This document shows positions 8,001 through 45,641 of a stretch of 64,000 nucleotides of DNA, in pieces. Within the stretch, counting starts at the first letter, position 1. Each line of letters begins with the position of its first letter. The position numbers and the translations under genes are program-made. The notes beneath the pieces are model-generated. The model was not told the DNA's origin. It saw only the letters and a program-made list of their open reading frames with translations, and ran no database searches. The DNA is from Gemmatimonadota bacterium (GTDB lineage: Bacteria; Gemmatimonadota; Gemmatimonadetes; Palauibacterales; Palauibacteraceae): positions 9,020-73,019 of the forward strand of contig JBDHBD010000006.1 of NCBI GenBank assembly GCA_039587755.1. Direction: 5' to 3'.

Positions 8001-8025
8001 TACGCCAGTCCTGCGCCGAAATGCC

Positions 8026-11075: not shown

Positions 11076-11124
11076 GGCACGGCACGCGTAGCAGACGGGT
11101 CCGCGGTCTCGAGCGAAAAGCTCG

Positions 11125-20682: not shown

Positions 20683-20723
20683 ACTTAAGTGTCGCGCCCT
20701 CCGGGCACGTTCTCGGGACAAGT

Positions 20724-20752
20724 CGAAAGCCTGCTAACCATGCAGGCTTTCG
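20724..20752. terminator. Hairpin, probable terminator between convergent genes
   Basis: Perfect 11-bp stem CGAAAGCCTGC-taaccat-GCAGGCTTTCG. Confidence 0.6.
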
Positions 20753-20941
20753 TGCGTCTGGATAGGCTGGTGGATCGTCGTCGGACGGACGGTCTTCGGC
20801 GATGACGCCCGGAGGCACCGGGAAGACGCGTGACAGCGGCAGGGCCGGGAACAACGACCGGAAGACGCAGGCGCTCGTTGTAGAAGGGAACGACCGGCGT
20901 GTACCCTGGATCCTCCGGGCTTTGCCGAGTCCTTGGACCCC

Positions 20942-22864
20942 TCATTCGGCTGTAGGGCCGCGCGTGCGCGCGTACTCTAGCGCCTCGCGATTCGTCTCGT
21001 GCACCAGCTTCCTCCATTGCTCGAGCGTGGCCAGGAAGCCGATGGTTCGCATGTGGTCCGCCAGAGTGCTGCGCTTCTTATCCAGCAGCGTGCCGACGAA
21101 ACCTTTGTCCAGGAGTCTTCGACTGACGCTGTCTTCCTCGACGAACCAGTCGCGCAAGGGTCCGCGCACCATTTCGGCCAGGGTTTGCAGCCGGACCATG
21201 TCGTGCGTAGCTGGGGAGTCGCCCGAGCGGCTGAATCGAATCGAGTCGACGAGGCGGTAGGAGGCCGACAGCACACGGGCCGTCGTGCGCGCGGCCAGCC
21301 CCCAGGATCTCGAGTCGGCGTATGCGGCTAACGGAAGCACGTACTTGTGATTCACCGGAAGCCAGTACGCCTTCCCGGCGTATCTCCGAATGATCGTCTT
21401 GTGCAGGGCCATATTGTGCCCGATAGGTGCTGGCAGCGTGTGTGCCAGTCGGGTGACCGACGGGCTCTCGAAAGGCGCATGTACCGGCTCCAACCAGGTG
21501 AACTTCGCTGCACCAGCAAAGCGTCCCTTTTCCCGCAGACAGAAGAGATCTAGTAGATCGCCAAGCAGTCGTGACATACCAGCGGCCTGGCTCACAGACT
21601 CCGCGACGCGCTCCACCAAGTCGTCAGCCAATCGCGGATCGCTCCAGGGGAGGGATCGCACATAGCAGCCCACCAGATGGCTGCAGGCGATGTCTGACGT
21701 TGCGAGTCGAAGGGTCTCCCGGTCGATCCCGCCGTACACGATTCCTCTAAACAGCTCACCATTCGTGCCGGACAGCGTAGCGGTTCTACCGGTGGCGCTT
21801 GGCAGGGCGTCCGCGGCCCGTTTCGCGTCCGTCATCCCGTTGGTGGCGTACGCGCGGAGTTGCAGGTGTGCTCCGAAATACACGTTGTCCGTTCCGGGCT
21901 CGGCTACCTCATGCTGTAAGCCGTACCAGCGCGCGAGCAGTCGAGCGGTCCGGACATCGGGACTGTCGCGACGCCCTGCCGTCGTGGCGATCAGCCTTTC
22001 AGGGGGAACCGCTGAAAGAGCGAGCGTGAGCACGGTTCGTGAATCGATTCCAGCGGTTAGGTCCAGCTCGACGCGGGAGTGGTTGGCACAGAAGGTCCTT
22101 GCCTGCGTACGCATGATCTCGATGATCTCATCTCGACGTGTCTCGATCGCCCGCTGATCTCCAAGCTCGAGCTTCTCACGCGGATCGACAGGAGACATTC
22201 CGCGCTGAGTAGTGATCTCTCCCTGTTGCCACTTCACAAACTTCGCGGAGTCACAGCTCTCGATGCCACGAACGAGACTCCTTCCAGCCACGGACCACTC
22301 CATCGCGAGGACCGAAGCCGCGCTCACAGGGTCGAGTTCGGGCTCGAGCAGTCCGGTTCCTACAATCGGCAGATCGTGGCTGGACACCACGATGGCATTC
22401 GGAAGGGTGAGGTATCTAAGGGACCTTCGTCCGGCGAGGTCGCTCACCATGTAGACGGCTTTCTCAGCCCTGGCAACGAGCACGGCGCCGAAGCTGCCGT
22501 CCAGCTCCTGGATCGAGCGAGGGCCGCCCTTTCTCCAGGCTGCTGCGCAGGCGCCGGCCGTCGATCGACCGGGAACGCTCTGACCGAACAGCACGCCGAA
22601 CGCCAGGACAGCCAGGTCTTCTTCCACGTGCTGCGAGATCAGTTCGCTCAGCGGGCCGGTCTCTGGCTGCAGGCAGTACCATCCGCCGCTCGGGCTCGTG
22701 CAGCTCCAGCGGCGACTGGCATATGATATGTCGAGACGCGGAAGCACGGCGTTGATCGCGTGCAGCGAAGCGTCGATCGGACGGCATCCCGATCGTGGCT
22801 GGCGTTCGAAGAAGGCGAGGAGTGCGTGCAAGGACTCTAGCCCGTCCCACCGCGAATCTTGCAC
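20942..22864 (-). CDS. Asparagine synthetase-like ATP-dependent amide ligase
   Basis: LDGSFGAV, SDLAGRRSL (degenerate GATase), DLTAGIDSR PP-loop, SGTNGELFRG, APF; no N-terminal Cys. Confidence 0.72.
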   Translation of the reverse strand: MQDSRWDGLESLHALLAFFERQPRSGCRPIDASLHAINAVLPRLDISYASRRWSCTSPSGGWYCLQPETGPLSELISQHVEEDLAVLAFGVLFGQSVPGRSTAGACAAAWRKGGPRSIQELDGSFGAVLVARAEKAVYMVSDLAGRRSLRYLTLPNAIVVSSHDLPIVGTGLLEPELDPVSAASVLAMEWSVAGRSLVRGIESCDSAKFVKWQQGEITTQRGMSPVDPREKLELGDQRAIETRRDEIIEIMRTQARTFCANHSRVELDLTAGIDSRTVLTLALSAVPPERLIATTAGRRDSPDVRTARLLARWYGLQHEVAEPGTDNVYFGAHLQLRAYATNGMTDAKRAADALPSATGRTATLSGTNGELFRGIVYGGIDRETLRLATSDIACSHLVGCYVRSLPWSDPRLADDLVERVAESVSQAAGMSRLLGDLLDLFCLREKGRFAGAAKFTWLEPVHAPFESPSVTRLAHTLPAPIGHNMALHKTIIRRYAGKAYWLPVNHKYVLPLAAYADSRSWGLAARTTARVLSASYRLVDSIRFSRSGDSPATHDMVRLQTLAEMVRGPLRDWFVEEDSVSRRLLDKGFVGTLLDKKRSTLADHMRTIGFLATLEQWRKLVHETNREALEYARTRGPTAE

Positions 22865-23817
22865 GTCGGGCCCTGGGAATCAGAATCTTCGGCGCGCCAC
22901 CGCAGATATGCCTCCACGTGTTCATGCAGCGCGGTCTTTTGAGTGTTCCACCTCCAGGCTCCCTGCCGAGAGATGGCAATGTCGGACTTCGGGTCGAATT
23001 CAAACCGAGTGAATGCGTTGTAGGCCCAATTCCTCGCGCGACGGGCAGTGTCGCCGTGCCACAAATGGAGGAGATCACCTTCTGTACAACCGATGTGGCC
23101 CCGGATTGCTTCGTAGAACCGTCGGGCCCAATCTCCGAAGTGGTCTGCGTGCAGCTTCGACATATGGAACGTTTTGATTATGTCGCCATACTTGCCGAGC
23201 CCAGTTGCAGCCATCGCCTTGTCTCCCCCACCCACGACGAGGGCGTCATAGAAACCGCAGGTCGCAAGCACGTCATAGCGGGCGGCCCAAGCATATCCGG
23301 GCTTGTAGCCCAAGAGGTGGCTTGCGCCAATGGTCTGAAACACCCACTGCGGCAAGGATCCCTGCGACGCCACCAGACCGAGAGACCGACTCCTGGAGCC
23401 GGGAATCTGCCGATAACCTTCAGAACTCGTTGAAGGCTCCGCTTGCCACACCAAACTGAACGGCTGAACGAGCGCCATCTTCTCGAGAGCCCGCCGTGCC
23501 AAATCGGGCCACCTCGAGTCCAAGAACACCACGTCGCAGTCTAGCCAAACGACCACCTCGCATTCCGAGGGAAGCGCAGACAAGGCGACGTTGAGAAGGC
23601 GCTCCTTCTGCCACAACCAGTCTCCCCCGGGGATCTTGACCAGCAGTTCGGCGTCGTCCTCAACAAGTTCATACCGGCCGAAACCCAGCTCCACGGTCAA
23701 CAGCGGGACTGCCAACGAGCGACGAAACATGCAGTAGTTGGCGAGCCGGCGAGGTGACCCGAGTGGGTTGAAATACGATGTTATGGCCCACACTGGGCTG
23801 TTACTAGCTTTCACCAT
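22837..23817 (-). CDS. GT-A-like glycosyltransferase-related protein
   Basis: ITSYFNP, LWQKERLLN, WLDCD (DxD), QPFS, GYAWAAR, GGGD, HLWHG. Confidence 0.6.
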   Translation of the reverse strand: MVKASNSPVWAITSYFNPLGSPRRLANYCMFRRSLAVPLLTVELGFGRYELVEDDAELLVKIPGGDWLWQKERLLNVALSALPSECEVVVWLDCDVVFLDSRWPDLARRALEKMALVQPFSLVWQAEPSTSSEGYRQIPGSRSRSLGLVASQGSLPQWVFQTIGASHLLGYKPGYAWAARYDVLATCGFYDALVVGGGDKAMAATGLGKYGDIIKTFHMSKLHADHFGDWARRFYEAIRGHIGCTEGDLLHLWHGDTARRARNWAYNAFTRFEFDPKSDIAISRQGAWRWNTQKTALHEHVEAYLRWRAEDSDSQGPTCKIRGGTG

Positions 23818-24287
23818 CCGCTCCCTATGGCAGCCTGGCTACTTTTACCGTATGTCCGCGAAAATCAAGGTAAACGGCAATGCACCGATCCAGCTTCCAG
23901 GGATGGGCACGAGATACTTGGCTGCGGAGCGCCCATCCCGCAACTGGACAGGCACACTCGCTGCGGCATCATGTAACAGCGTACTATCCAATTCTGTGCC
24001 ATGGGCACACGCAGATGCGGCGGCATCGACGGATGTGCGGTATGGAAAATGAGTGGTCCCTTCGGCTTGGCGGTGTTCGTGGTCTCGAGTGCACCTTCAC
24101 TCGGTCCTGGGCGTGTGGGCGGCAGATCGCAGCACATGCCACCTTGGCGTTGCGATGCTACAACAGGCACAGGTGACCAGTTTGCAGCGAGCCAACACCC
24201 TTGGCTTGGAACCGCTTTCACGTCTTCGTCGCAGCCCGCTGACTCCTGCGAACATTGGGTGGGAATGACGCGCAGGGTGAGTGCCCG

Positions 24288-25355
24288 ATGAGGCCGGAAC
24301 TGTACCTGCCGTTCGTGGTCGGCCTCACGAAGCGGGACCCCGCGGCGGTCAGTCGTCTGGTGTCAGCCACCGACTACAAGCCCGCGGATCTCCTGGCGTT
24401 CGTGTATCGAAACAGTATTCCGGGCTATCTATACGTCCGGCTCAGCGAGCTGGGGCAGCTCGACGAATTCCCGGATAAGATGGTCGAGGAGCTCGAACGC
24501 TTTCACAAAGAACGGCAGCTGCCTACCTGCCGCTTGCTGACCGATGAGCTCATGGAAGTTCGCGAACGGTTGGAGTCGGCGGGTGTCGACACGGTCTTCA
24601 TCAAGGGACCGTTTCTCGCTCAGCGATTCTATAGCGATCCGACCGCTCGACTTTTCTGGGATATCGATGTGCTGGTGCGCGGGCAGATTGACGTCGAACG
24701 GTGCGATGACGTACTCCAGGGGATGGGCTACCTGCGGAAGTCGATCCGGCTTCTGGGCTACAGGCTGGCCATGCACTTCGCCCACGACTTCGAGTACGCG
24801 CGGGAATGGCGGAGGTTGGACCTCCACTGGCGACTCGGAGCCCATTACTCATTCCGGGTCGATGAGGAGCGCATGTGGTCGTCTCGCGAAACGATCCTTC
24901 TGCGAGATCGGCCATTTGCTGTTCTTTCGGAGGAGTACGTTCTCGTGCTGCTCCTGCTGGCCCTGTTCAACGACAGCCAGCGCGGCAAGCTGCGCGCGAA
25001 GGGGATGATCGATACGTACATGGTTCTTGCGTCTGCTTATGAGAAAGTGGATTGGCAGGAGTTCTTTGCCTGCCGCGCAAAGGAGGGGATCCTGAAGATC
25101 AGCTGCACCCTGCTAAACCTGGTGCTGCACGCGTTCGACTGCCGGAGCGAGTTCCCCGAGCTCGCGACTTGGCTCGACCGGGCGGCCGATCAAATCGGGC
25201 CGAGCGACCCGGAGCGCGGCTTCTGGCTCCTCCAGCGTTCCCATGGGTCGCTCGACAACAAGTTCTGGAGCTTCCGGCTGTACGACTCGAGCCTCTGGAA
25301 GGTGTTACTCTGGTACGCGGCCTCCCAGCCCATAAAACAGGCGGTCTACCGGTGA
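24288..25355 (+). CDS. Nucleotidyltransferase family protein (NTP_transf_5-like)
   Basis: IKGP.LA..Y....R...DIDVLV and LDLHW motifs. Confidence 0.82.
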   Translation: MRPELYLPFVVGLTKRDPAAVSRLVSATDYKPADLLAFVYRNSIPGYLYVRLSELGQLDEFPDKMVEELERFHKERQLPTCRLLTDELMEVRERLESAGVDTVFIKGPFLAQRFYSDPTARLFWDIDVLVRGQIDVERCDDVLQGMGYLRKSIRLLGYRLAMHFAHDFEYAREWRRLDLHWRLGAHYSFRVDEERMWSSRETILLRDRPFAVLSEEYVLVLLLLALFNDSQRGKLRAKGMIDTYMVLASAYEKVDWQEFFACRAKEGILKISCTLLNLVLHAFDCRSEFPELATWLDRAADQIGPSDPERGFWLLQRSHGSLDNKFWSFRLYDSSLWKVLLWYAASQPIKQAVYR

Positions 25356-27250
25356 AGAGGTCCACCCGCCCGAAGACGACCGAGGCGCAAGCCGGAAGCG
25401 AGTGGACGCGAACCACCGTCGACACGAGCGCCTACTCGGACAAGCTCAAAGCGATTCTCCCCACCGCGCGCTGGGCCGTGCGCCTGATCTGGTCCACCAG
25501 CCCTTCCGTGCTCCTGGGGCTTGTCGTCCTGGTGGTCGTGCTCGGGCTGTTGCCCGCTGGCCTCGCTCTCACCGTGCGCGGCCTCGTGGACGCCGCGGTC
25601 CTGGTGCTCGATACTCCCGATGTTGGATTCGGTCCTATCCACGTCTGGCTTCTCCTCGCCTTCGGTCTGTCGATCGTCGAGGCCATCGGCATGAAGCTAG
25701 ACGCGTTCCTGAGGAGTCGTCTGAGGGACGAGCTGAACCTTCGGATCAACAGCGAAATTCTCGAGCATTCGGCCCGACTCGACGTGGCCTTCTTCGAGGA
25801 TCCGAGAGAGCGAGACCTGGTCACGCGGGCTCGCGAGAGTAGCAGCGGACAACTCGTCGGCTTCATCACGGAGCTCCTGCGAGCGGCCACGAGCCTGTTT
25901 CGCGCATTCTCGCTGGTCAGCGTACTGGCGTATATCGAGCCGCTGGTCCTGCTGGTCGTCCCGCCGTTCGCGATTCCGTTCTTGGGCTTTCAGTGGAAAC
26001 TGGCCCGGGACCGGTACGCCGAACGGCACAGGCGGACGACGAAGCGCCGCTGGACCAACTATTTCGTCGGCGTGATGACCGGAACCGGGTCGGTGGGTGA
26101 GGTGAAGTTGCTGGGCATCGGTCCGCTGCTGACGAGCAGGTATCAGGAGCTCATGAACGAGTTCCGCGTCCGCGATCGCCGCCTGCACCTGCGCAACTTG
26201 ATCGGCGGCTCAGTAGCCGCCGTGCTGGTGATCGTCGCCGTGTTCGCGATATTCGTGCGCGTTGCCTATCGCGCCGTACAGGGGGGGGCGAGTCTCGGAG
26301 ACCTCGCCGTGTTTGCCGGTGCCACGGCTCGACTGCGGATATCCCTCGATAACGCCATCGTCGCCCTGACTGTTTCGGCCGAGCAGGTCCTGTTCATCGC
26401 TAACCTCGAGAAGTTCATGCGGGTCGAGCCCCGCATCGCGACCACGGGGAAGCTCACGCCCCCACTCGACCGCGGGGCGATCGAGCTCCGCGACGTCACG
26501 TTCGCGTACCCGGGCTCGACGGAGCCCGTGCTGCAGGACCTGTCGCTCCAGATTCGTCCCGGAGAGACGCTCGCGATCGTGGGCGAGAACGGCGCGGGCA
26601 AATCCACGCTCGTGAAGCTTTTGGCCCGCTTCTACGATCCCGATCAGGGGCAGGTGCTGTTCGACGGTGTCGACCTCAAGGAGGTCTCGGTAGCCCACCT
26701 GCACCGACGAATGGGGCTGGTACTTCAGGCGTTCGGCCGCTACGAGACCACCGTGGCGGAGAACATCGCGTACGGCAATGTGGAGGATCTGCTGGACGAT
26801 CCTGCCCGAATCGAGGAACTGGCGAAGGCCGTGGGCCTGGACCAGAAGATCGGCTCGCTTGAGGAAGGTTACGAGACGCACCTTGGCCGGACGTTCGGCA
26901 CCGTGAACCTCTCCGGGGGGGAGTGGCAGAAGATTGCCGCGGCTCGAGCGCTGGCGCGGAGCGCCTCGCTGCTCGTGCTGGACGAGCCCACGTCGAACCT
27001 GGATACGCGAGGAGAGCACGAGCTGTTCACGCGCTTCCGCAACCTGGCCGAGGGCAGGACGACGATCCTCATCTCGCACCGGTTCACCACGCTCAGCATG
27101 GCGGATCGGATCGCCGTGATGGCGGACGGGCGAATCGTCGAGCTGGGTACGCACGCGGAGCTGTGCGCACAGGGAGGGGTCTACGCGACGCTGTACGGGT
27201 TCTACGAGCAGCTACTGCCCGAGAATCGACTGCTGAGTCAGAGCTCCTGA
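25352..27250 (+). CDS. ABC exporter, fused permease/ATPase
   Basis: TM domain; GENGAGKST, LSGGEWQK, LVLDEPTS, ISHR; GTGA overlap with the upstream gene. Confidence 0.93.
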   Translation: MKRSTRPKTTEAQAGSEWTRTTVDTSAYSDKLKAILPTARWAVRLIWSTSPSVLLGLVVLVVVLGLLPAGLALTVRGLVDAAVLVLDTPDVGFGPIHVWLLLAFGLSIVEAIGMKLDAFLRSRLRDELNLRINSEILEHSARLDVAFFEDPRERDLVTRARESSSGQLVGFITELLRAATSLFRAFSLVSVLAYIEPLVLLVVPPFAIPFLGFQWKLARDRYAERHRRTTKRRWTNYFVGVMTGTGSVGEVKLLGIGPLLTSRYQELMNEFRVRDRRLHLRNLIGGSVAAVLVIVAVFAIFVRVAYRAVQGGASLGDLAVFAGATARLRISLDNAIVALTVSAEQVLFIANLEKFMRVEPRIATTGKLTPPLDRGAIELRDVTFAYPGSTEPVLQDLSLQIRPGETLAIVGENGAGKSTLVKLLARFYDPDQGQVLFDGVDLKEVSVAHLHRRMGLVLQAFGRYETTVAENIAYGNVEDLLDDPARIEELAKAVGLDQKIGSLEEGYETHLGRTFGTVNLSGGEWQKIAAARALARSASLLVLDEPTSNLDTRGEHELFTRFRNLAEGRTTILISHRFTTLSMADRIAVMADGRIVELGTHAELCAQGGVYATLYGFYEQLLPENRLLSQSS

Positions 27251-28731
27251 CGCAGGACCTTGCCGGTTGCGCTGGTCGGTAGCTCGTCTCGAAACTCGAT
27301 GACGCTCGGGACCTTGTAGTCCGCCAATCGATCGCGACAGACGCTGATCAGCTCCTCTCGGCTGCATTCACCGTCCGGCACGACCACGGCTCGCACCCGC
27401 TCATCGCCGTACGGTGTCTCCATCCCGACGACGACCGCCAGTCGGACACCGGAGTATCGCTCGAGAACCTGCTCGACTTCGTAGGGATTTACCTTGTAGC
27501 CGCCGCAGTTGATGAACAGGGACTTGCGCCCGATCAGGTATATGTTGCCCTTCGCGTCCTTGCGCCCGACGTCCCCGGGGAAGAAGTAACCGTCCTTGAA
27601 CGCCTTTGCCGTGGCCTCGGGAAGGCCCGGATACTCGCGCGTCGCGGCAGGACTGCGGATTCCGACGTCGCCTTCCTCGCCTGATTTCGCGGGCGTCCCA
27701 TCTTCCGTGAAGATCTCGACCTCCACGCCCTGGATCGGAAGGCCGACCGATTCGAGCGACTCCACAGGGTCGTCCGCCAGGTTGTGGGCGACAGACCCCG
27801 TCTCGCTCGAGCCGTAGGCCTGCCGCACGTAATGACCGTAGCGGTCGTGGAACGCGACGCTGACCTCTCGCGGGAGCGGAGCGCTCGCACTGAAGCAGTG
27901 GCGCAGCGACGAGAAGTCGACGGGCCATGGCCACCGGCTCTCTGCGAGCACCTGAAACATGAAGGGGATGCCGATGAAGATGTTGACCCGGTGCTCCTCG
28001 ATGGTTCGAGCCACGCCACGACGCTCGTACTTCGGGAGAGGGACGAGTGTCGCGCCGGCGAGCATCGACGCCAGCATGCTACGAGTGAGGCCGTTGGAGT
28101 GGGCGAACGGCGCCACGCCGATCACGCGGTCTTCCGGTGAGAAGCCAAGCGCCTTGGTCAGTCGATCCGTTTCGTATAGCAGGTTGAAGTGCGTCCGGAG
28201 GATCCGCTTCGGCTTGCCGGTGCTGCCCGACGAATAGAGGCAGAGGACGGGATCATTGGATGCCGCGGCCATCTCCGGCCATGGGATACCCCCTCCCTTC
28301 GGTCCTTCGGAGGGGTCGTGGTCGCCGATCTCGAATACCGCTCCCCGGTCCTCGTTTCCGGCGGCCAGAAAAGCGTTGGTGCACCGCTCCCGAAGCTCGG
28401 CGTTCGTGGTCAGGAAGCTGACCCCAGCGTCGGCCAACAGCGATGCCATTTCCGTTTCGGTGAGCGCCGGGTCGATGGGCACCGCTACACCTCCCGAGTG
28501 CGCGATCGCGAAGAAAGCCCGGACGAACGCCGGACCGTTGGGCAGAGTGATCGCGATCCTCGTTCCGGGTTCCACGCCGGCCTCCACCAGCCGTCTGGCC
28601 AGACTGGCCACCTCGTAAGCGAGAGACGCGTACGTAATCGCTCCCGAGTTCCACAGAACCGCCGGATGCTGCGGGTCGGCCTCCGCCGCATTTCGAAAAC
28701 GGGTGCACAGGGTATCCGAGCTAGAATGCAT
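27238..28731 (-). CDS. AMP-binding (ANL family) acyl ligase
   Basis: YSSGSTGKPK, AYGSSETG, PGDVG, GRK..INCGGYKVNPYEVE, TGKV. Confidence 0.92.
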   Translation of the reverse strand: MHSSSDTLCTRFRNAAEADPQHPAVLWNSGAITYASLAYEVASLARRLVEAGVEPGTRIAITLPNGPAFVRAFFAIAHSGGVAVPIDPALTETEMASLLADAGVSFLTTNAELRERCTNAFLAAGNEDRGAVFEIGDHDPSEGPKGGGIPWPEMAAASNDPVLCLYSSGSTGKPKRILRTHFNLLYETDRLTKALGFSPEDRVIGVAPFAHSNGLTRSMLASMLAGATLVPLPKYERRGVARTIEEHRVNIFIGIPFMFQVLAESRWPWPVDFSSLRHCFSASAPLPREVSVAFHDRYGHYVRQAYGSSETGSVAHNLADDPVESLESVGLPIQGVEVEIFTEDGTPAKSGEEGDVGIRSPAATREYPGLPEATAKAFKDGYFFPGDVGRKDAKGNIYLIGRKSLFINCGGYKVNPYEVEQVLERYSGVRLAVVVGMETPYGDERVRAVVVPDGECSREELISVCRDRLADYKVPSVIEFRDELPTSATGKVLRQEL

Positions 28732-29035
28732 GACTCTCTCCCGTCGTGGCCGCCGCCTCGATCTTGCGGCGAACGGCCTCCAACAGGGAACCGAAGCTCT
28801 CGAGGCTTTGCGCGAACTCCTCGGCCTCGAGGAACAGATCGAACTCGTTTTCGATCCGTATCATGAAACTTACCGTGTCGAGGGAACTCAGGCCGATCCC
28901 CCGACCCAGGATCGGCGTGTCCAACTCGATCTCGTTCCAGGAGACGGCACCGCCCGTCTGGTCCGCCATGAGCCTCCTCAGCCGGACCTCCAAATCCGGA
29001 ACCTCACCGTTCTCGTGGAGCGCAGATTCGTTCAT
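28721..29035 (-). CDS. Acyl carrier protein
   Basis: 104 aa, acidic; GIGLSSLDTVSFMIRIENEFD (variant of GxDSL); coupled to both neighbours. Confidence 0.8.
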   Translation of the reverse strand: MNESALHENGEVPDLEVRLRRLMADQTGGAVSWNEIELDTPILGRGIGLSSLDTVSFMIRIENEFDLFLEAEEFAQSLESFGSLLEAVRRKIEAAATTGESHAF

Positions 29036-31004: not shown

Positions 31005-31150
31005 CGTAACGGATCCATACAATGTGTTCCGTTGTTTCCTGGCATCCTTCGTTTCCGGTCCAGAATCTGCGTTGCCGTCTTGTTTCGGAAGCTGCGGTTC
31101 CGTAATTGCCAGGCCCGGAACTCTATCCGGAGCCCGAGGAAGCACATTCC

Positions 31151-34151: not shown

Positions 34152-34305
34152 GATTCGCGCTACACGTCAGACTCGGCGGATTCGGTTTCGGCCTTGTCCT
34201 GGAGCTTCGCGGACCTCTGAATGCCAACGCACGCGGCGCCCCTGCCGCAGCTGCTCGATCAAGGCCTGACGACTCGTCGCTGGCGCAGATATTGTATCCC
34301 AACCC

Positions 34306-36147: not shown

Positions 36148-36160
36148 CAGCGCGCCGGCC

Positions 36161-38639: not shown

Positions 38640-39589
38640 ACGACAAGAGGCGACGCCGGAAAGCGATGAAGTCGACCTTCTGCACGATTGTCGATCGGGC
38701 GTACGTGCCGTTCGCGATGGCACTGTACCAGTCTCTGGCTCGGCAGCGGCCGGATGCACGCCTCACGGTGCTCGTCACCGACGGCGTCCCCGAACACGAA
38801 CCGGAGCCGGGCTCAGGCATTGAGATGCTCGGGGTCGACGGACCGTGCGGTAGCGGGAGCGGGAGAGACATCTATGAGAAGTATTTCCACACGGCGAGGA
38901 ACACGTTCAGATGGTCTATGAAGCCCGTGCTCGTCGACCATCTTCTGAACGCCGGGGGCCTTGACCGGGTGATCTACCTGGACAGCGACATGTGGTGCTG
39001 TGGAGATTATCAGTTCCTGTTCGACAAGCTTTCACGCAGTCACGTCATTCTCACACCGCACTGGCGGCCCGTGGAAGCCCCCGAGGTCAATGCGGCTTCT
39101 TCTCGCGCGTGGGATTACCTGCTCAACTTCCGGGACGGCTTCTTCAACGGCGGCCTGGTCGGGGCCAGCCGCGCAGGTGCTCCTGCGATGCGTTGGTGGG
39201 CCAAGGCGTGTGCGTTTCGGTGTGAGAGGCACTACTCTCTCGGGCTCTATGACGACCAGAGGTATCTGGACATGTTGGCCTCTCTCTTCGAAGGAGTAGA
39301 GGTGATTCGCCATCGCGGGTGCAACATAGCCGGCTGGAATCGACTCGAGTGCGAGCGAACGCAGGCAGCGGACGGTCGGATCCTCATCAACGGCGACTGG
39401 GACGCGGTGTTCGTGCACTTTGCGATCAGCACGATCCGCTCGATCTCCCTGGGGCGCGATCCGCTGCTTCGCCCGCTGTTCGACGAGTATCTCGAGTGTC
39501 TCGCGAGCCACGGAGTCACTCCGGATTCGGCCCTCTACGCAGCCACGATCGGCGCCGCGATGACTCCAAAAACGTCCCCCGCGGTTTAG
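38636..39589 (+). CDS. GT-A glycosyltransferase (GT8-like)
   Basis: FCTI, KP, YLDSD, LTPH, FNGG, DDQRYLD, NIAGWN, FVHF. Confidence 0.75.
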   Translation: MNDKRRRRKAMKSTFCTIVDRAYVPFAMALYQSLARQRPDARLTVLVTDGVPEHEPEPGSGIEMLGVDGPCGSGSGRDIYEKYFHTARNTFRWSMKPVLVDHLLNAGGLDRVIYLDSDMWCCGDYQFLFDKLSRSHVILTPHWRPVEAPEVNAASSRAWDYLLNFRDGFFNGGLVGASRAGAPAMRWWAKACAFRCERHYSLGLYDDQRYLDMLASLFEGVEVIRHRGCNIAGWNRLECERTQAADGRILINGDWDAVFVHFAISTIRSISLGRDPLLRPLFDEYLECLASHGVTPDSALYAATIGAAMTPKTSPAV

Positions 39590-39593
39590 CCCG

Positions 39594-40550
39594 ATGCTTA
39601 CCGTGCTGATCGCGACGTACAACGGCGCCGACACGCTGCCGCGGACGCTGGCGGCCCTGTGCGAGCTGGAAGAGCCGGACAGTGGATGGCGGCTGCTCCT
39701 GGTGGACAACGGCAGCGAAGACGGCACGCGAGAGGTCATCGACACATATCGCCAGCGGCTACCGCTCACCCACCTGTTCGAGCCGAGGCCGGGGAAGTGT
39801 CGAGCGCTCAATGCCGGGCTAGAGAGGATCGAAGGCGACCTCGTTGTGTTCACGGACGATGACGTGATCCCTGAGGTGGACTGGCTGTGTCAGCTGAGGA
39901 GATGCGCGGATGAGCGACCGGAATACTCGATCTTCGGCGGTCCGGTGCTCCCCCTGTGGCCGTCGGAGCCCGCCGAGTGGATCACCGAGTGGGTGCCGTT
40001 GAGTCCGGTCTACTCCTTGCTTCCCCGGGATGAAAGCGGTCCGAGGGAGCCGCGCCGGGTTTTTGGGCCCAACATGGCGATTCGTTCGGAGGCCCTGCGA
40101 TCGGGTCCCAGGTTCGATGAGTCGCTGGGGCCAAGTGGCTCGCGCTACTCGCAGGGAGACGAGACAGACTTCTTGATTCGACTGTCCGCTGCAGGCCATC
40201 GCGCCTGGTTCTGCCGTGAGGCGGCGGTGCGGCACATCATAAAGCCGATTCAGCTGACGGAGCGCTGGATCCTCGAGAAGGCCGCGCACTTCGCCCGGTC
40301 GGAGTACGTGCTGGCTTCCAGACACGGCTTTCGAATTGACGGATCGGCGGCGGCCGGGCTGTACGGGACGCACAAGGCCTGGTTGACCGACTCCCTTCGT
40401 ACCGTATTTGCGCGCCTGAGTGAAACGACGGAGCCGGGATTTGGCGTGCGCTGGGAGCGGAGGCTGTCTCGCGGCCGCGCGCAGGGAGCCCGTTGGCTGG
40501 CGAAGCAGAAGGCCACGGCTGCGTTTCGTCGCGACCGGGGAGGTGTCTAG
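39594..40550 (+). CDS. Glycosyltransferase, GT2
   Basis: VLIATYN, VDNGSED, GK.RALN, FTDDD, GPNMA, GDET. Confidence 0.92.
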   Translation: MLTVLIATYNGADTLPRTLAALCELEEPDSGWRLLLVDNGSEDGTREVIDTYRQRLPLTHLFEPRPGKCRALNAGLERIEGDLVVFTDDDVIPEVDWLCQLRRCADERPEYSIFGGPVLPLWPSEPAEWITEWVPLSPVYSLLPRDESGPREPRRVFGPNMAIRSEALRSGPRFDESLGPSGSRYSQGDETDFLIRLSAAGHRAWFCREAAVRHIIKPIQLTERWILEKAAHFARSEYVLASRHGFRIDGSAAAGLYGTHKAWLTDSLRTVFARLSETTEPGFGVRWERRLSRGRAQGARWLAKQKATAAFRRDRGGV

Positions 40551-41513
40551 GTGCTTAGCGTGCTCATGTCGACGCGCGACGGTGAGCGGACGATCCCGGC
40601 GACGCTCGAGGCCTTCCGCAGGCTCCAGCGGCCTGCGGGCGGCTGGAAACTCGTTGTCGTCGACAACGCGAGCACCGATGGCACGCGAAGGATCATCGAA
40701 TCGCATCGCGACTCCCTACCGATCGACTACGTGTACGAGCCGCAGATTGGCAAGAACAGGGCGCTAAACAGAGGGCTTGAGCACATCGTCGGCGACCTGG
40801 TGGTAATCACGGACGACGACGTGCTTCCCGTCTCGGAGTGGCTGACGATCCTGCGCCGCGCAGCGGACGCCCGGCCGGCATATTCGATCTTCGGAGGGCC
40901 GGTTCTCCCCCGGTGGGCATCGCGGCCGCCTGGCTGGATCCTCGACTGGGTGCCCCTCAGCCCCACCTACACGATCCTCTATCCGCGCCCCGAGGGTCCT
41001 TATCTGGCGCGCGGAGTGTTCGGCCCAAACATGGCCGTTCGGGTTCCCGTTTTTCGCAAAGGCTACCGGTTCGAAGAACGCATCGGCCCCAGAGGCCGCA
41101 GCTACGCGATGGGGAGCGAGACCGAGCTGCTGCTCCGGCTTGAGCAGGCCGGCTACCGAACGTGGCATTGCCAGCGGGCGATAGTGTTTCACGCCATCGA
41201 GGCGCATCAACTGACCGAGGACTGGATCCTCGAGCGGGCGGTCCGCTTCGGCCGCGGGATGTACCGGCTTCAGCGCACGACGGGTCAGAGGCGACACTTT
41301 TCCGCGATGGGCTCGCGACGGAGTCTGGGCGGGGAGCTCCTGAATCGTTGGATCAAGGTCCAGCGGGCCCATCGTGCCGGGGACCGCGAGGCGACGTTCA
41401 AGCACCGCTGGTACCTGCGCTTCCACACCGGTCGGGCACTCGAGGCAGCGCGCCTGCTCCGCGATCGCTTGAGTCGCCGGGACTGGAGTCGCCAGGCAGG
41501 AGTGGCCGGATGA
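40551..41513 (+). CDS. Glycosyltransferase, GT2 (paralog of the upstream gene)
   Basis: VDNASTD, GKNRALN, ITDDD, SIFGGPVLP, WVPLSP, FGPNMA, GSET. Confidence 0.92.
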   Translation: MLSVLMSTRDGERTIPATLEAFRRLQRPAGGWKLVVVDNASTDGTRRIIESHRDSLPIDYVYEPQIGKNRALNRGLEHIVGDLVVITDDDVLPVSEWLTILRRAADARPAYSIFGGPVLPRWASRPPGWILDWVPLSPTYTILYPRPEGPYLARGVFGPNMAVRVPVFRKGYRFEERIGPRGRSYAMGSETELLLRLEQAGYRTWHCQRAIVFHAIEAHQLTEDWILERAVRFGRGMYRLQRTTGQRRHFSAMGSRRSLGGELLNRWIKVQRAHRAGDREATFKHRWYLRFHTGRALEAARLLRDRLSRRDWSRQAGVAG

Positions 41514-42400
41514 GCATAGTACAGCTCAGCGAGCTCGGATCGGACGTGCTCAAGTTGCTTGAGCAGCTCGGTCGGCGTGCCGTCGAGGTGGCGCCCATCG
41601 GCCGGTTCCGGAACGGACACCGATCCTGTTATCGCCTCCGCCTCGATGACGGTGTGACGGTCAAGGCGAGGATCGCCGCGACCGCCAACGATGCGTGCCG
41701 TATCGAGACGCTGTCCGGTCATCTCCCGCCGGAACTCTTTGCGCGTGTCCTCGCTCGATACGGACGTGCCTTGTTCGTCGAGTGGATTCCGGGGCGCTCG
41801 ATCACATCCGGGGACTGCACGAGCGCTTTCATGGAACGTTGCGGTGGTCTGCTCGCCACCGTGCACCACGTCAAGCCGCCGAACAGCCCCGCCTGGTGGC
41901 ACCCGACGACGCATCAACCGGCCGAGGAACGTCTCTCCCGCGACCTCCACAAACTCGTGGAGCTCGGTGGCCTGACTGAGCCTTGCGCCCGTGGTCTGGC
42001 CGGGGCCGCGGGCCGGTACGGTCCAGAGGACATCGCGGTCGGGCTCGTCCACTGGGACCTGTGCGCTGCGAATGTGATCGCGGGTCGCGACGGCGCGCCG
42101 AGAGTGATCGATCAGGACACCCTGTACATTGGACCGTGCGCAGGCGACCTGGCGAGAACGTGGTATCGCTGGTCGCTCACGAGTGAACAGTTCGGCGCCT
42201 TCCTGACGGGCTACAGGAGCCAGCGCGACACGGCCGAGTTCGAGTCCAGCTTCTGGTACTGGGCCGTCAGCGCGCTGGTGGACTCTGCCCTGTGGCGGCT
42301 CCAAGTGGGGTCGCGAGAGGCTCGCGTGCCGCTGTCGATGCTGAAGGATGCCGCTGCCGAGGGCGTCGAGAGCATCGGAAATCCGGAGGAGTGGCGCTGA
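41510..42400 (+). CDS. APH/choline-kinase family phosphotransferase
   Basis: TVKAR, EWIPG, LVHWDLCAANV (HxDxxxxN), VIDQD, DLA; ATGA overlap. Confidence 0.8.
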   Translation: MSIVQLSELGSDVLKLLEQLGRRAVEVAPIGRFRNGHRSCYRLRLDDGVTVKARIAATANDACRIETLSGHLPPELFARVLARYGRALFVEWIPGRSITSGDCTSAFMERCGGLLATVHHVKPPNSPAWWHPTTHQPAEERLSRDLHKLVELGGLTEPCARGLAGAAGRYGPEDIAVGLVHWDLCAANVIAGRDGAPRVIDQDTLYIGPCAGDLARTWYRWSLTSEQFGAFLTGYRSQRDTAEFESSFWYWAVSALVDSALWRLQVGSREARVPLSMLKDAAAEGVESIGNPEEWR

Positions 42401-43647
42401 TGGCCGACTCGTTGGGCAGCCACGACCGAGCGGCTTCGCGCGCCCGATCGCGCCCGGATCTCGCGGCGCAGTGCCGGATCATGTTGGACTACGCCGGGTT
42501 CCGGCTCGGCGTATCATCCGATCACTCGGCCCACCTCGAATGGCTGGAGGAGTTTCTCGCGCCGCCCTTCGAGACCGTGCGTGTAGACCGGCACGATTGC
42601 GAGCGTCTCGATTGCGAAGTCCTCTTGACCCTCGACGACGAGGCCTTCGAGCGCCAGTTGGCCGATGGGCCGGCGAGCGGAAGCGACGTGTGCTTCGAGA
42701 TGGACACGCGGGTCGTCCGCCTGCCCGTCTGGCGAAGCGACCAGCCGGATCGCGTCGTGTTCGACGAGGCCGGGTGCGTGTTCTACCGGGTGGATGCTCT
42801 TCACAGGACGATCGAGATTCTCGCCTCCGCGGCCACATCCGCGAGCGAGGATATGGCGGTGCGAATCGCGCTCATGCGAGCGGTTCGAGAAGTCGCGATG
42901 CACGCGGCCGTGGCCCACGGGGGCGTGTTTCTGCACGCCGCGGGGTTTGCAGTCGACGGCAGCGGCGTGATCGTGGCCGGCCCCAAACGGACGGGGAAGA
43001 GCACGCTTCTGCTCTTCGCACTGACGGCGACGCCCGCCGCGCTGCTCAGCAACGATCGGCTGCTTCTCACGTATGACAACGGCGATTTCCTCGTGAGAGG
43101 TCTTCCGACGATCACGACGCTCCGTGCCACTACGCTCGACTTCTTCCCCGCCATCCTACGCTCGCTGCTGGAGGATGGATTCCACACGGGTGTGACGGTG
43201 GCGGAAGCCGCGCGCTCATCCCGAGGGCATCGCGGTCAAGTGGGTCCGGCCCCGGACGGTCGATTCGGGATCACGAATCGACAGCTGTGCCAGCTCGCAT
43301 CGTGCGAAGCCGTGGCGCAGGTGCCGACGACGGCCGTCCTGTTTCCCCGCCAGAGGAAGGACACGGAAACGCTAGAGCTCGTCCAGGCGTCGGAGGACGA
43401 GGCGGCGCACCAGCTGCGGCGGTCCCTGTTCGGCCGTCAAGAGGACCGACCCGTGAACCCGTTGTTCAGGTTGGCCCCTTCGCCCGCGGGGGGCTATCCG
43501 GACGCGGCGGAGGCTTGTCGCGCACTGGCCTCGAACGTGCCCTGCTACTTCTGCGATGTCGGACCTCGCAGTTACGAGCTGGCGGCTTCGGCCGAGGCCT
43601 TGCTCGAGCGATTGCAGGACCGGAGAACGACAACCACGGAGAAGTGA
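42400..43647 (+). CDS. HPr kinase/PEPCK-like P-loop protein
   Basis: FLHAAG, AGPKRTGKST Walker A, LLSNDR; TGATG coupling. Confidence 0.75.
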   Translation: MADSLGSHDRAASRARSRPDLAAQCRIMLDYAGFRLGVSSDHSAHLEWLEEFLAPPFETVRVDRHDCERLDCEVLLTLDDEAFERQLADGPASGSDVCFEMDTRVVRLPVWRSDQPDRVVFDEAGCVFYRVDALHRTIEILASAATSASEDMAVRIALMRAVREVAMHAAVAHGGVFLHAAGFAVDGSGVIVAGPKRTGKSTLLLFALTATPAALLSNDRLLLTYDNGDFLVRGLPTITTLRATTLDFFPAILRSLLEDGFHTGVTVAEAARSSRGHRGQVGPAPDGRFGITNRQLCQLASCEAVAQVPTTAVLFPRQRKDTETLELVQASEDEAAHQLRRSLFGRQEDRPVNPLFRLAPSPAGGYPDAAEACRALASNVPCYFCDVGPRSYELAASAEALLERLQDRRTTTTEK

Positions 43648-43648
43648 C

Positions 43649-44539
43649 ATGTCACAGACAAGCGGTACTCGGCTGCGCCGAGCGGTTGAGGATACCGACA
43701 TTCTGCCGTTCATCGGCATATACGACGCGTTCTCGGCATCCCTCGCAGCGCATTCGTACGACAGCCTGTTTCTGAGCGGTTTCGGCCTCGCCGCGAGCCA
43801 CTACGGTCTGCCGGACGTCGGCTTCGTGACCTGGTCCGACATGATCGCTCTTTTGGAGCGGCTGCGCGGTGTGCTCCCAGACCATCACATGATGGTCGAC
43901 ATCGATGACGGCTACGGCGGCCCGGAGCAGGCGGCCTATGTCGCCGGCTGTCTCGAGTCGGTGGGAGCATCCGGCGTGGTCCTGGAAGATCAACGGCGGC
44001 CGAAGCGATGCGGCCACCTCGGCGGCAAGCGCGTTCTCGATGTCGGCGAGTACATGGAGAAGCTGGATGCGGTACTGGAGTCACGGAAGGACCTGTTCGT
44101 GGTAGCCAGAACAGATGCCGAGCAACGAGACGAAATGATCCGTCGGGCCGTGGCGTACGGAGAGGCCGGTGCCGACGCGGTGCTTGTGGATGGGCTGCAG
44201 GATTTGGGGATCCTCCTGGAGCTCTCGGCCGCTACTGATCGGCCGATCGCGTTCAACCAGATCGCCGGTGGAAGATCGCCGGCGTGCTCGCTCGAGGAGT
44301 TGAGCCAGCGGGGCGTCTCCATCGTTCTCTACAGCACTCCATGTCTGTTCGCGGCCCAGCGAGCCATCCAGGATGAAATGGTGGCACTGAGAGACAGGGG
44401 AGGCAGCCTCGAGCAGCCGGGCGTGGATGCCATCGGTCTCGCCGAGTGCAACGAAGTCCTCCAGCGCAACCTCGATGCCGCGCTGGAACCGGAGCGACAG
44501 CGAGAGCCCTCGGAAGCACCGGGCATGCAGAAAGCGTAG
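43649..44539 (+). CDS. Isocitrate lyase/PEP mutase superfamily enzyme (KRCGH type)
   Basis: YDAFSA, SGFG.AAS.YGLPDVG, VDIDDGYG, LEDQRRPKRCGH, VARTDA. Confidence 0.9.
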   Translation: MSQTSGTRLRRAVEDTDILPFIGIYDAFSASLAAHSYDSLFLSGFGLAASHYGLPDVGFVTWSDMIALLERLRGVLPDHHMMVDIDDGYGGPEQAAYVAGCLESVGASGVVLEDQRRPKRCGHLGGKRVLDVGEYMEKLDAVLESRKDLFVVARTDAEQRDEMIRRAVAYGEAGADAVLVDGLQDLGILLELSAATDRPIAFNQIAGGRSPACSLEELSQRGVSIVLYSTPCLFAAQRAIQDEMVALRDRGGSLEQPGVDAIGLAECNEVLQRNLDAALEPERQREPSEAPGMQKA

Positions 44540-44552
44540 GGATCCGTCGGGC

Positions 44553-45641
44553 ATGCACATTACTCACGTTGTGGGCGCGCGTCCGAACCTGATCAAGGTG
44601 GCGCCGGTCATGCGCTCCCTTCAGGAGGCAGAGGAGGTGACGCAGTCTCTGGTGCACACCGGACAGCACTACGATGATCCGCTTTCCGGCCGGTTTCTTC
44701 ACGACCTGGACATCCCGAGGCCGAACGTCAATCTGGGCGTCGGATCGTCATCTCATGCAGAGCAAACCGGCAGCATCATGATCGCCCTGGAGCCGGAGCT
44801 AGAGAGACTCCGTCCGGACTGGGTCTTTACCGTGGGCGATGTCAACTCCACGGTGGCTGCCGCACTCGTGGCGGCCAAGCTTGGCATACGCGTGGCTCAC
44901 GTGGAAGCCGGCCTGCGCAGTTTTGACTGGTCCATGCCCGAGGAAATCAACCGGGTCGTCACGGATCGGCTTAGCGATGCGCTCTTCACGACCGAGCCAT
45001 CGGCCAACGAAAACCTGCGCCGCGAAGGCATTGACGGTGCACGCGTTCATCACGTGGGAAATGTGATGATCGACACATTGGACCGCTATCGACCCCGGGC
45101 GGCCAAGCTCAAGCTGCATGAACAGCTATCGCTCAAGGAGGGAGGCTATGTGCTCGTGACGCTGCATCGGCCTCAAAATGTCGATCGAAAGCCCCGGTTA
45201 CGATCGATTCTGGAGGGCCTGGGCGACATCGGTGCAGAGGTGCCGGTCGCCATGCCACTTCACCCCAGAACCGAGCGCAACATCCGAAGATTCGAACTGG
45301 ACGAGCTTCTGGAGAGAATCACGGTGCTGGAGCCGCTCGGATACCTGGAGTTCCTCTGCCTGATGGACTGTGCGGGTGCGGTGCTCACGGACTCGGGCGG
45401 TGTTCAGGAGGAGACCAGCGTCCTGGGTGTTCCCTGCATCACCCTCCGCCCGAACACAGAGCGGCCCATCACGCTCACGGCAGGGACCAACCAGTTGTTC
45501 GACGACGATCTGACCGCCTTGCCCCCGCTCGTGCTAAACAGCCTCACCGTGGAGCGGCGCCCCTGCCGCCCCGCACTCTGGGATGGAAGGGCCTCGGAGA
45601 GGATTGCGTCTATTACCGTAACACAACTCGCTGAGGGCTAA
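44553..45641 (+). CDS. wecB: UDP-N-acetylglucosamine 2-epimerase (non-hydrolysing)
   Basis: VGARPN.IK.AP, HTGQHYD, GDVNST, HVEAGLRS, PEEINR, TLHR, TDSGGVQEE, TERP. Confidence 0.95.
   Translation: MHITHVVGARPNLIKVAPVMRSLQEAEEVTQSLVHTGQHYDDPLSGRFLHDLDIPRPNVNLGVGSSSHAEQTGSIMIALEPELERLRPDWVFTVGDVNSTVAAALVAAKLGIRVAHVEAGLRSFDWSMPEEINRVVTDRLSDALFTTEPSANENLRREGIDGARVHHVGNVMIDTLDRYRPRAAKLKLHEQLSLKEGGYVLVTLHRPQNVDRKPRLRSILEGLGDIGAEVPVAMPLHPRTERNIRRFELDELLERITVLEPLGYLEFLCLMDCAGAVLTDSGGVQEETSVLGVPCITLRPNTERPITLTAGTNQLFDDDLTALPPLVLNSLTVERRPCRPALWDGRASERIASITVTQLAEG

Follow-up and report, generated by a model that had tools for sequence, protein, structure and literature searches.

A genus-conserved mosaic gene island of a Gemmatimonadota bacterium with a recurrent two-kinase module and a possible role in phospho-glycosyl tailoring

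Gene content of the island

Here, we analyzed a gene island of a Gemmatimonadota bacterium in which glycosyltransferase (GT) genes are combined with an APH-type kinase, an HprK-like kinase, an NTP_transf_5 enzyme and an ABC exporter. The source assembly (G000) comprises 3.31 Mb in 49 contigs and is 91.9% complete; the window, that is, the whole 64,000-nt stretch that was analyzed, corresponds to positions 9020-73019 of contig C6, and the island occupies 20942-45641 of the window. On the basis of our results, the island is one unit within its genus and a mosaic beyond it, and it carries a kinase module that recurs in several other bacterial groups.

The island consists of 20 open reading frames (ORFs; P01 to P20) in four strand blocks: P02-P01 (minus), P03-P04 (plus), P08-P05 (minus) and P09-P20 (plus). 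Fourteen of the 16 same-strand junctions overlap or are at most 4 nt apart, the two looser ones being P10 to P11 (154 nt) and P19 to P20 (13 nt), and P12 to P19 form a single coupled run that unites GT4 and GT2 genes, the kinase genes and an ICL-like gene. The GC content is 60-68% across the window, and the composition scan detected neither a break at the island nor a GC island. No Rfam family was matched over 18000-48000, and promoter and terminator scans performed no better than on shuffled sequences.

With Pfam at E<=0.01, families could be assigned to 17 of the 20 proteins, that is, all except P02, P14 and P18. An earlier note on this DNA, made from the sequence alone, had described 20 contiguous, mostly start/stop-coupled genes in four transcription units with named families, and the ORF layout and the Pfam and NCBIfam searches bear this description out. 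Most of its individual family calls held; the Asn-synthetase-like call is sub-threshold and the HPr-kinase-like call is based on weak matches. Its count of eight GT-like genes was reproduced in part: five genes are above threshold (GT4 for P11, P12 and P13, and GT2 for P15 and P16) and P02 has a modeled GT-A fold, P09 is sub-threshold, and P14 has only a 23-residue GT8 match. The features are listed below, where core denotes genes whose relatives also travel together outside the genus.

20942..22864, minus: P01, divergent AsnB-like ATP-dependent amide-forming enzyme, 640 aa (sub-threshold PF00733, PF13537 and TIGR03108)
22837..23817, minus: P02, GT-A-fold glycosyltransferase of an unnamed family, core (alignment, hhalign and AlphaFold2 (AF2) model)
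24255..25355, plus: P03, NTP_transf_5 (PF14907) nucleotidyltransferase-fold enzyme, core (Pfam 108.6 bits)
25352..27250, plus: P04, ABC exporter with fused transmembrane and nucleotide-binding domains, MsbA/HlyB-like, core (ABC_membrane and ABC_tran in one protein)
27238..28731, minus: P05, AMP-forming acyl ligase (PF00501, 250.7 bits)
28721..29035, minus: P06, acyl carrier protein (ACP) with GLSSLD serine (PF00550, 21.1 bits versus cut-off 20.8)
29032..29832, minus: P07, AAC(3)/FrbF-fold N-acyltransferase (PF02522, Antibiotic_NAT, 148.7 bits)
29829..31004, minus: P08, (alpha/alpha)-barrel protein with prenyltransferase/squalene-cyclase-type repeats (PF13243, SQHop_cyclase_C, 36.2 bits)
31151..32224, plus: P09, probable GT-B (GT4-like) transferase (four GT-B Pfam families, sub-threshold)
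32187..34151, plus: P10, heparinase II/III-like protein, polysaccharide lyase or epimerase fold (PF16889, 91.2 bits; PF07940, 78.3 bits)
34306..36147, plus: P11, TPR plus GT4 glycosyltransferase (PF00534, 96.7 bits)
36068..37501, plus: P12, GT4 glycosyltransferase, start uncertain (PF13692, 103.1 bits)
37494..38639, plus: P13, GT4 glycosyltransferase (PF13692, 53.4 bits)
38636..39589, plus: P14, no family assigned, DSD motif (PF01501, E 0.038 over 23 residues)
39594..40550, plus: P15, GT2 glycosyltransferase, core (PF00535, 81.6 bits)
40551..41513, plus: P16, GT2 glycosyltransferase, paralogue of P15, core (PF00535, 68.1 bits)
41510..42400, plus: P17, APH-family kinase, core (PF01636, 52.4 bits)
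42400..43647, plus: P18, HprK-like P-loop kinase, the defining core gene (NCBIfam and HprK profile matches)
43649..44539, plus: P19, ICL/PrpB-like lyase-type member of the PEP-mutase superfamily (PF13714, 124.3 bits)
44553..45641, plus: P20, WecB, non-hydrolysing UDP-GlcNAc 2-epimerase (Epimerase_2; TIGR00236, 290.2 bits versus cut-off 210.15)

A kinase module that recurs outside the genus

We collected 51 loci that contain a relative of P18, 12 from species genomes (three of them already known from the search of related genomes) and 39 from metagenomes, and annotated all of them with local hidden Markov models. In 35 of the 51 loci, an APH gene lies no more than 400 nt from the HprK-like gene, and in 29 it is located upstream on the same strand; many of the 16 loci without a nearby APH gene are short contigs. 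Among the 19 loci of at least 10 kb, APH genes were present in 17, NTP_transf_5 genes in 12, GT2 genes in 11, ABC exporters in nine (MsbA-like in five, Wzm/Wzt in three to four), P02-like genes and GFO oxidoreductases in four each and PqqD in two. The core that travels outside the genus is composed of six to seven genes (APH, HprK-like, NTP_transf_5, ABC, GT2 and P02-like), and the island contains the P17/P18 pair together with its usual companions P03, P04, P15 and P16. The earlier view of a single 20-gene pathway unit fails at this point: outside the genus only these six to seven genes co-travel, and AsnB-like, ACP, AAC(3)-like, barrel, GT4-block and heparinase-like genes were found in none of the 51 loci. 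P14-like, PrpB-like and WecB genes appeared in the sister species' locus only.

The P18 family is much larger than these loci. A profile of 16 members, searched against 1.84 billion representatives (50%-identity clusters), retrieved 11,820 proteins at E<=1e-3, 763 of them even at E<=1e-30; one member, P0003, is 62% identical to P18. The family occurs in Gemmatimonadota, Methylomirabilota/Rokubacteria, Binatia, Acidobacteriota, Chloroflexota and metagenome-assembled genomes of Deltaproteobacteria. In 41 related genomes, strong P18 relatives were detected in four and P02 relatives in five, including those four. Of eight long proteins scanned from the top 150 representatives, four are APH-HprK-like fusions with the APH domain at the N-terminus, one is an ABC-HprK-like fusion (1036 aa, with a full exporter), one is an NTP_transf_5-HprK-like fusion (711 aa) and two have no recognized extra domain. 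The natural fusions are represented by P0022, P0028, P0094, P0130, P0092, P0139 and locus L030 (8906-11041). Fusions, gene adjacency and phyletic pattern together show that the APH kinase, the HprK-like kinase, the NTP_transf_5 enzyme and the exporter, with GT-A enzymes, form a genuine functional module. The HprK-like family is large, widespread and almost always accompanied by an APH kinase.

The closest match to P16/P17/P18 outside the genus is a GT2-APH-HprK-like set in metagenome locus L036 (61%, 41% and 48% identity, respectively), in which the GT2 before the APH gene is also 47% identical to P15. Genes for N-acyl amino sugars recur beside the module in this locus (3965-11898) and in L037 (12476-17692), where we found a DegT aminotransferase, GFO dehydrogenases, a hexapeptide acetyltransferase and a DUF354 epimerase-like gene, which resemble a WbpB/E/D/I-like set. 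Both loci also have a PhoD-like phosphatase with a DUF7800 domain beside the module, and L036 alone has a methyltransferase.

Within the island core, P17, P18 and P03 have retained their catalytic motifs intact. P17 contains HWDLCAAN and IDQD, its gene overlaps that of P18 by 1 nt, and P03 carries a DxD motif (WDIDV). P18 has the Walker A motif GPKRTGKS and weak NCBIfam matches (TIGR04355, E 2.4e-7; ScmC, 1.2e-6; HprK_rel_A, 2e-4); its profile matches HprK (1jb1) at E 0.005 over the P-loop, and the protein bears the precomputed label PF27840. P02 matched nothing in Pfam or NCBIfam, and PDB sequence searches with P01, P02 and P14 returned no match. An alignment of eight P02 members revealed invariant DxD, YFNP, WQKERLLN, GGGD and WHG motifs, hhalign against a GT2 alignment gave 60% with the DxD motifs aligned, and all Foldseek matches of the AF2 model (pLDDT 82.9, pTM 0.86) are GT-A transferases, including K4CP (E 3.4e-7), GpgS, WrtF and hyaluronan synthase. 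These three lines of evidence show P02 to be a GT-A glycosyltransferase.

Conservation within the genus

In the sister species (G001), P01 and P03-P13 are located on one contig at 74-79% nucleotide identity, P14-P20 and the right flank on a second contig at 78.5%, and the left flank is 83% identical. The gene order of the island is preserved at 74-83% nucleotide identity, and since the sister species holds the same genes on two contigs, the island is not an assembly artefact. P02 is missing from the corresponding place. P14, for which no NCBIfam model matched, is 73% identical in the sister species. The earlier note had proposed to check both co-conservation elsewhere and a gene-for-gene match to a characterized cluster, and the answer is divided: co-conservation of the full set does not extend beyond the genus, and no characterized cluster corresponds to it.

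Two further observations concern the left border. The sister contig has 5.2 kb (G001:C68:50774-55984) between the left-flank gene and P01, a distance of about 170 nt in G000, and within this insert, one segment resembles a portion of the P11 GT4 gene at 68-74% identity. The window gene at 19930-20682 (plus) encodes a protein of 250 aa that matched no family; its start resembles a signal peptide, part of it is duplicated internally, and it ends in an acidic tail (DDDEDDD). The gene is kept at 83% nucleotide identity beside the island in the sister species.

The PqqD-tail cassette on another contig

According to the earlier note, PqqD/RRE genes were absent. This is correct for the island, but not for the genome: PqqD (PF05402) was matched on contigs C15 and C2, and the C15 gene heads a cassette that is contiguous with the kinase core in the nearest relatives. 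The C15 operon (C15:10410-18337, or L032 8411-16337) lies downstream of a divergent Ser/Thr kinase-TPR gene and encodes a PqqD protein (141 aa from its likely start), a GFO_IDH_MocA oxidoreductase, four GT2 enzymes, an NTP_transf_5 enzyme and a D-2-hydroxyacid dehydrogenase, with neither a kinase of the module type nor an exporter. Only two NTP_transf_5 genes were found in the genome, P03 and that of C15, and P18 is the single HprK-like one, and so C15 lacks a kinase or exporter of its own.

The arrangement differs in a member of the same family (G015). Its cluster starts with a radical-SAM/SPASM gene, then PqqD, GFO, three GT2, sugar-nucleotide genes, a GT2 and an NTP_transf_5 gene, and continues with 2-hydroxyacid dehydrogenase, NTP_transf_5, ABC and HprK-like genes and finally APH; a P02-like gene and a sulfotransferase gene lie upstream. 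Metagenome contig L037 has GFO, four GT2, NTP_transf_5, 2-Hacid_dh, NTP_transf_5, ABC, HprK-like and APH genes in the same order, and the C15 block proteins are 81-86% identical to those of L037 and 56-76% to those of G015. In L036, a PqqD-tail gene 76% identical to the C15 gene lies 9 kb from the GT2-APH-HprK-like set on the same contig, and L041 has the order GFO-NTP5-ABC...APH-HprK-like. P03 is 37% identical to the NTP_transf_5 protein encoded just ahead of the ABC exporter in G015 and L037. P04 is 47-54% identical to the exporters of PqqD-type clusters, and 54% identical to those directly preceding the HprK-like gene in G015, L037, L038 and L023.

We found 195 relatives of the C15 PqqD protein, 120 of which were aligned. 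In these, the PqqD domain is followed by a linker that varies in sequence (about 23 residues) and then by the C-terminal tail KHDEPLHEVxxxPFDPQLPLAE, which is at least 90% conserved at nearly every position, with overall identity to the query falling to 42%. The linker is rich in Ala, Gly and Pro with a Ser+Thr content of 16% (in the 45 of 120 sequences that the pattern could parse), a content too low to support the idea of a mucin-like acceptor in it. The models that give the C15 protein its highest scores are those of lasso PqqD chaperones (NF033536), although its 49.5 bits fall short of the cut-off of 80. In a sample of 301 genomes of the phylum, the PqqD domain was matched in 87, and the tail was reached in three published genomes (G000, G015 and G222). 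No precursor-like small ORF was found upstream of the G015 PqqD gene or inside the C15 cassette, where an apparent gap turned out to be the fourth GT2 gene. A tRNA-like translation upstream of the C15 PqqD gene was also considered; no tRNA and no Rfam match were found there.

Accessory genes and flanking genes

P01 scores just below the cut-off for PF00733 (20.5 versus 21) and reaches 27.9 bits with TIGR03108; no lasso-specific NCBIfam model matched it. It has a PP-loop-like AGIDS motif and no N-terminal Cys nucleophile. Lasso cyclases lack this nucleophile, yet so do other AsnB-like enzymes. Full-length relatives were found in two of the 41 related genomes (its own and that of the sister species), and the large protein search gave five clusters.

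The P05-P08 block contains a ligase that matches many NCBIfam acyl-CoA ligase models, all below cut-off, and an acyltransferase, P07, whose best PDB match is FrbF (3sma, E 4e-15). An aminoglycoside-resistance role was rejected for P07, which falls below every NCBIfam AAC(3) cut-off (best NF033082, 75.7 bits versus 270). P08, whose start is uncertain (the ORF is open to 31331), matches squalene cyclase SHC (3sqc) at E 1.5e-4. An AAC(3)-like gene was present in 19 of the 201 genomes sampled from the phylum. Of the nine foreign loci returned, four have a P08-like gene no more than 3.2 kb from the AAC(3)-like one and showed no kinase module (of the other five, four were viewed with flanks of 1.5 kb only); no ACP or ligase was detected beside any of the nine. 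P07-P08 is a second, independent sub-module, an unnamed conserved pair. The four loci with the pair (L095, L097, L098 and L092) belong to other Gemmatimonadota, and in one case the pair adjoins a WecB gene. A P07 paralogue (G000:C2:349614-350432) is 59% identical and has one in-frame TGA, and the 30 kb around it showed no modeled island family, including ACP, AMP-ligase and P08-type barrel genes.

Among the remaining genes, P09 has Pfam matches at E 3e-5 to 5e-4, all under the gathering score (24.9 versus 27), P11 reaches 338 bits with TIGR04063 (cut-off 442), P12 reaches 106 bits with TIGR03087 (cut-off 317), and a GT8-like role of P14 is only hinted at by its short match. P19 is best matched by prpB (156 bits versus 354), and its EDQ...KRCGH loop is one that we take to be of the lyase type. 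A phosphonate-making PEP mutase was considered for P19 and discarded, the TIGR02320 score (78.2) being far under the cut-off of 319.55.

Farther upstream in the window, a divergent pair is located at 8026-9480 (minus) and 9528-11075 (plus). One member encodes a flavin mononucleotide (FMN)-dependent dehydrogenase that resembles LldD/MftD at scores below the cut-offs and is extended N-terminally by about 130 aa. The product of its partner, 515 aa long, gave no more than a weak radical-SAM match. A mycofactocin link of the MftC/MftD type was examined for this pair and rejected (no SPASM domain; MftD score 221 versus 471).

Proposed function and alternative explanations

We favor, with a probability of about 0.42, the view that the island is a genus-conserved mosaic that shares a two-locus system with C15 and supplies its kinases, transferases and exporter, the acceptor being the PqqD-tail protein or another peptide. 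This view builds on direct observations, namely the gene families, the recurrence of the module, the fusions, the synteny of the PqqD cassette and the genus-level conservation; the recurring N-acyl amino-sugar genes of L036 and L037 were also counted in its favor. As to the chemical steps, the joint action of both loci and the identity of the acceptor, we infer the following scheme.

The conserved heart (P02, P03, P04 and P15-P18) would be a module for phosphorylation, phospho-glycosylation and export. P17 and P18 would phosphorylate a hydroxyl group, after which P03 might build a sugar-bearing phosphodiester on the phosphate, by analogy with PsmK/PsmN on a lasso peptide. P15, P16 and P02 would lengthen the glycan, and P04 would export the product. 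The HprK-like PsmK phosphorylates the C-terminal Ser of pseudomycoidin, and the nucleotidyltransferase-fold PsmN is needed for one or two hexoses on that phosphate (PMC6993621; PMC9266682). The other half could come from C15, with the PqqD-tail protein, the GFO-type sugar oxidoreductase, the four GT2 enzymes, the second NTP_transf_5 enzyme and the 2-hydroxyacid dehydrogenase. The genus- or phylum-restricted accessories WecB, P07, P08, P06 and P05 would supply and N-acylate amino sugars. The product of WecB is UDP-ManNAc, and P07 with the ACP P06 and the ligase P05 probably transfers a non-acetyl acyl group. The GT4 block and the heparinase-like P10 may build or trim a backbone, and AsnB-like P01 may form an amide. 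A phosphorylated, N-acylated glycoconjugate, as proposed in the earlier note, stays the most reasonable kind of product.

Several observations weigh against such a two-locus system. The conserved PqqD tail has no invariant Ser, Thr or Tyr. PqqD was present within the available flanks in just the two of the 19 large loci mentioned above (in G015 it lies 12.6 kb away, beyond the flank), and a PqqD-tail query found nothing in G030, whose genome is a single contig and includes the module. Identity to the G015 and L037 cores is only 31-54% for the island core, versus 56-86% for the C15 block, and on this account the island core is not a partner inherited vertically with C15; it may act by itself or be a separate paralogous system. 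In addition, the pairing of the module with Wzm/Wzt in three to four loci, one with a Wzt_C domain, points to a lipid-linked glycan, and the GT4 enzymes match polysaccharide (PEP-CTERM-type) families best.

The most serious competitor, which we regard as possible, is that the island directs a self-contained lipid-linked surface polysaccharide (exopolysaccharide- or O-antigen-like), primed in trans by a phosphoglycosyl transferase from another locus and exported by the ABC transporter, to which C15 would be unrelated. The GT4 and GT2 enzymes would assemble ManNAc-type N-acylated sugars, and the kinases and the NTP_transf_5 enzyme would add a phosphate cap or side group analogous to that of WbdD in Escherichia coli O9a. 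Wzm/Wzt genes adjoin NTP5-APH-HprK-like sets in G030, L025, L031 and L068, and G030, in which no PqqD-tail protein was found, has a Wzt_C domain (E 2.5e-7). Wzt_C is linked with capped glycans. The best matches of the GT4 genes are to TIGR04063, TIGR03087 and TIGR03088, and the heparinase-like and WecB genes are typical for polysaccharide loci. The WbdD kinase is reported to phosphorylate the glycan terminus (PMC3482155). On the other hand, the loci with Wzm/Wzt carry more distant P18 relatives (30-36% identity), P04 is of the MsbA/peptide-exporter type and groups with the exporters of PqqD-linked clusters, and Wzm/Wzt, Wzx, Wzy and a priming enzyme are all missing from the island. Their absence, and that of an RRE and of a B2 protease from the island had been recognized before and was confirmed (Wzy was not searched for): models for PqqD, Transglut_core3, Bac_transf, Glycos_transf_4 and Wzx found nothing within the island, the families mapping elsewhere in the genome or nowhere. 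In the whole assembly, neither Poly_export (Wza) nor an exosortase (PF09721) was found, and the only PF00953 gene is MraY.

Priming deserves separate mention. The earlier statement that there is no priming transferase holds for the island and does not extend to the organism. No Bac_transf was found in the 91.9%-complete G000 assembly; the sister genome has one, which lies in a region whose counterpart in G000 is past a contig end. Synteny between the end of G000 contig C14 (about 71715-77236) and G001:C91 stops at the contig end, 4.5 kb short of the Bac_transf gene. Since the corresponding sister region lies beyond this end, the G000 assembly probably lacks a C91-type second glycan region and a priming enzyme probably exists, and we dropped the idea of an organism without a priming transferase, a point which favors the polysaccharide. 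Past this point, G001:C91 holds that second glycan locus, which comprises GT4, GT2 and Bac_transf genes and one more AsnB-like gene. The only Wzx gene of G000 is on contig C34 in a different glycan locus (L034), in which the flippase (Polysacc_synt_3) is accompanied by GT4 genes, a GT2, a sulfotransferase and an ATP-grasp gene and the contig ends inside the locus.

Returning to the two-locus system, a more specific form of it seems rather unlikely: island and C15 might jointly make a ribosomal glycoconjugate of a new kind, in which the PqqD (RRE) protein with its own 22-residue tail would be a self-guided scaffold that is phosphorylated, glycosylated and exported. [quoted passage not shown]

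It is still less probable that unrelated glycan gene sets merely lie side by side in a variable region and share no product. The AAC(3)-like/P08-like pair does occur without a detected kinase module in four of nine other loci, the module occurs in 51 loci without ACP, AAC(3), heparinase or AsnB-like genes, and the sister locus is missing P02 and has the 5.2-kb insertion beside P01. However, the tight same-strand junctions with the coupled P12-P19 run, the gene order kept in the sister species and the absence of a GC anomaly between the parts all argue against mere juxtaposition. Finally, it is very improbable that the island is a genuine lasso-peptide cluster like those of paeninodin and pseudomycoidin, in which P01 would act as the cyclase: AsnB-like, HprK-like, NTP_transf_5 and ABC genes are all present and pseudomycoidin could be made in a heterologous host without the B1/B2 proteins (PMC6993621), but nothing precursor-like was seen in the two stretches read (23780-24300, the P02-P03 spacer, for ORFs of at least 20 aa and 19700-21000, downstream of P01, for ORFs of at least 25 aa), Transglut_core3 (PF13471, B2 protease) is unmatched in the whole assembly, the island has no PqqD, P01 is below cut-off on every model with full-length relatives confined to the genus among the 41 relatives and none in the 51 module loci, and eight GT-type genes are out of proportion to lasso tailoring.

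Comparison with known systems

AAC(3) enzymes and FrbF of the FR-900098 pathway share the fold of P07; unlike them, P07 comes with a coupled ACP and AMP-ligase and has an (alpha/alpha)-barrel protein as its partner. With PEP-CTERM/XrtA exopolysaccharide loci the island shares matches of its GT4 enzymes to TIGR04063, TIGR03087 and TIGR03088, of the ligase to TIGR03098 and of the AsnB-like protein to TIGR03108; all of these are below cut-off (for example, TIGR03088 64 versus 409), and exosortase, Wza and Bac_transf were not found in the assembly. The HPr-rel-A, HprK-related kinase B and SynChlorMet (ScmC) cassettes contain HprK-like kinases in uncharacterized PqqD-linked peptide-modification contexts, and P18 weakly matches their models (TIGR04355, TIGR04249 and TIGR04352). 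It differs from them in scoring 20-30 bits versus cut-offs of 125-200 (TIGR04352, 20.5 versus 200) and in belonging to a separate, APH-defined family.

The WbdD-Wzm/Wzt system of E. coli O9a resembles the module in its protein-kinase-fold enzyme that phosphorylates a glycan and in ABC export, and Wzm/Wzt stand beside the module in the three to four loci discussed above. Unlike this system, the island has no Wzm/Wzt, methyltransferase or coiled-coil ruler, and it has a fused MsbA-like exporter as well as an additional P-loop kinase and a nucleotidyltransferase-fold enzyme. If the module caps polysaccharides, it would represent a new chain-terminating chemistry in ABC-dependent glycan export.

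The tailoring set of phosphorylated lasso peptides (PadeK/PsmK, PsmN, exporter D and cyclase C) is also among the known systems closest to the island. Paeninodin was reportedly described by Zhu et al. in 2016. The island likewise has HprK-like, PF14907, ABC and AsnB-like genes, and the linked C15 cassette likewise has a PqqD domain that is closest to lasso PqqD chaperone models. The earlier comparison of the HprK-like, NTP_transf_5 and ABC genes (with the AsnB-like gene) to such loci is supported by the literature on them (PMC6993621; PMC9266682). In contrast to the lasso set, the island has no precursor in the two stretches read, no B2 protease and no RRE; P01 is outside the conserved module, and the PqqD match of C15 is below its cut-off. 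Moreover, an APH-type second kinase is obligatorily paired with the HprK-like kinase, and there are five to eight GT genes. Full-text literature searches, with most subscription journals outside their scope, returned no description of the APH/HprK-like module beyond lasso-peptide tailoring and none of the PqqD-tail motif.

Seen in this way, the island would be a variant of phospho-glycosyl tailoring set within a one-genus mosaic. If the module installs phosphate-linked sugars, the single case of PsmK/PsmN would be generalized to a widespread chemistry of soil bacteria, and the PqqD-tail cassette offers an expressible candidate acceptor, which would make lasso-like tailoring without a lasso directly testable.

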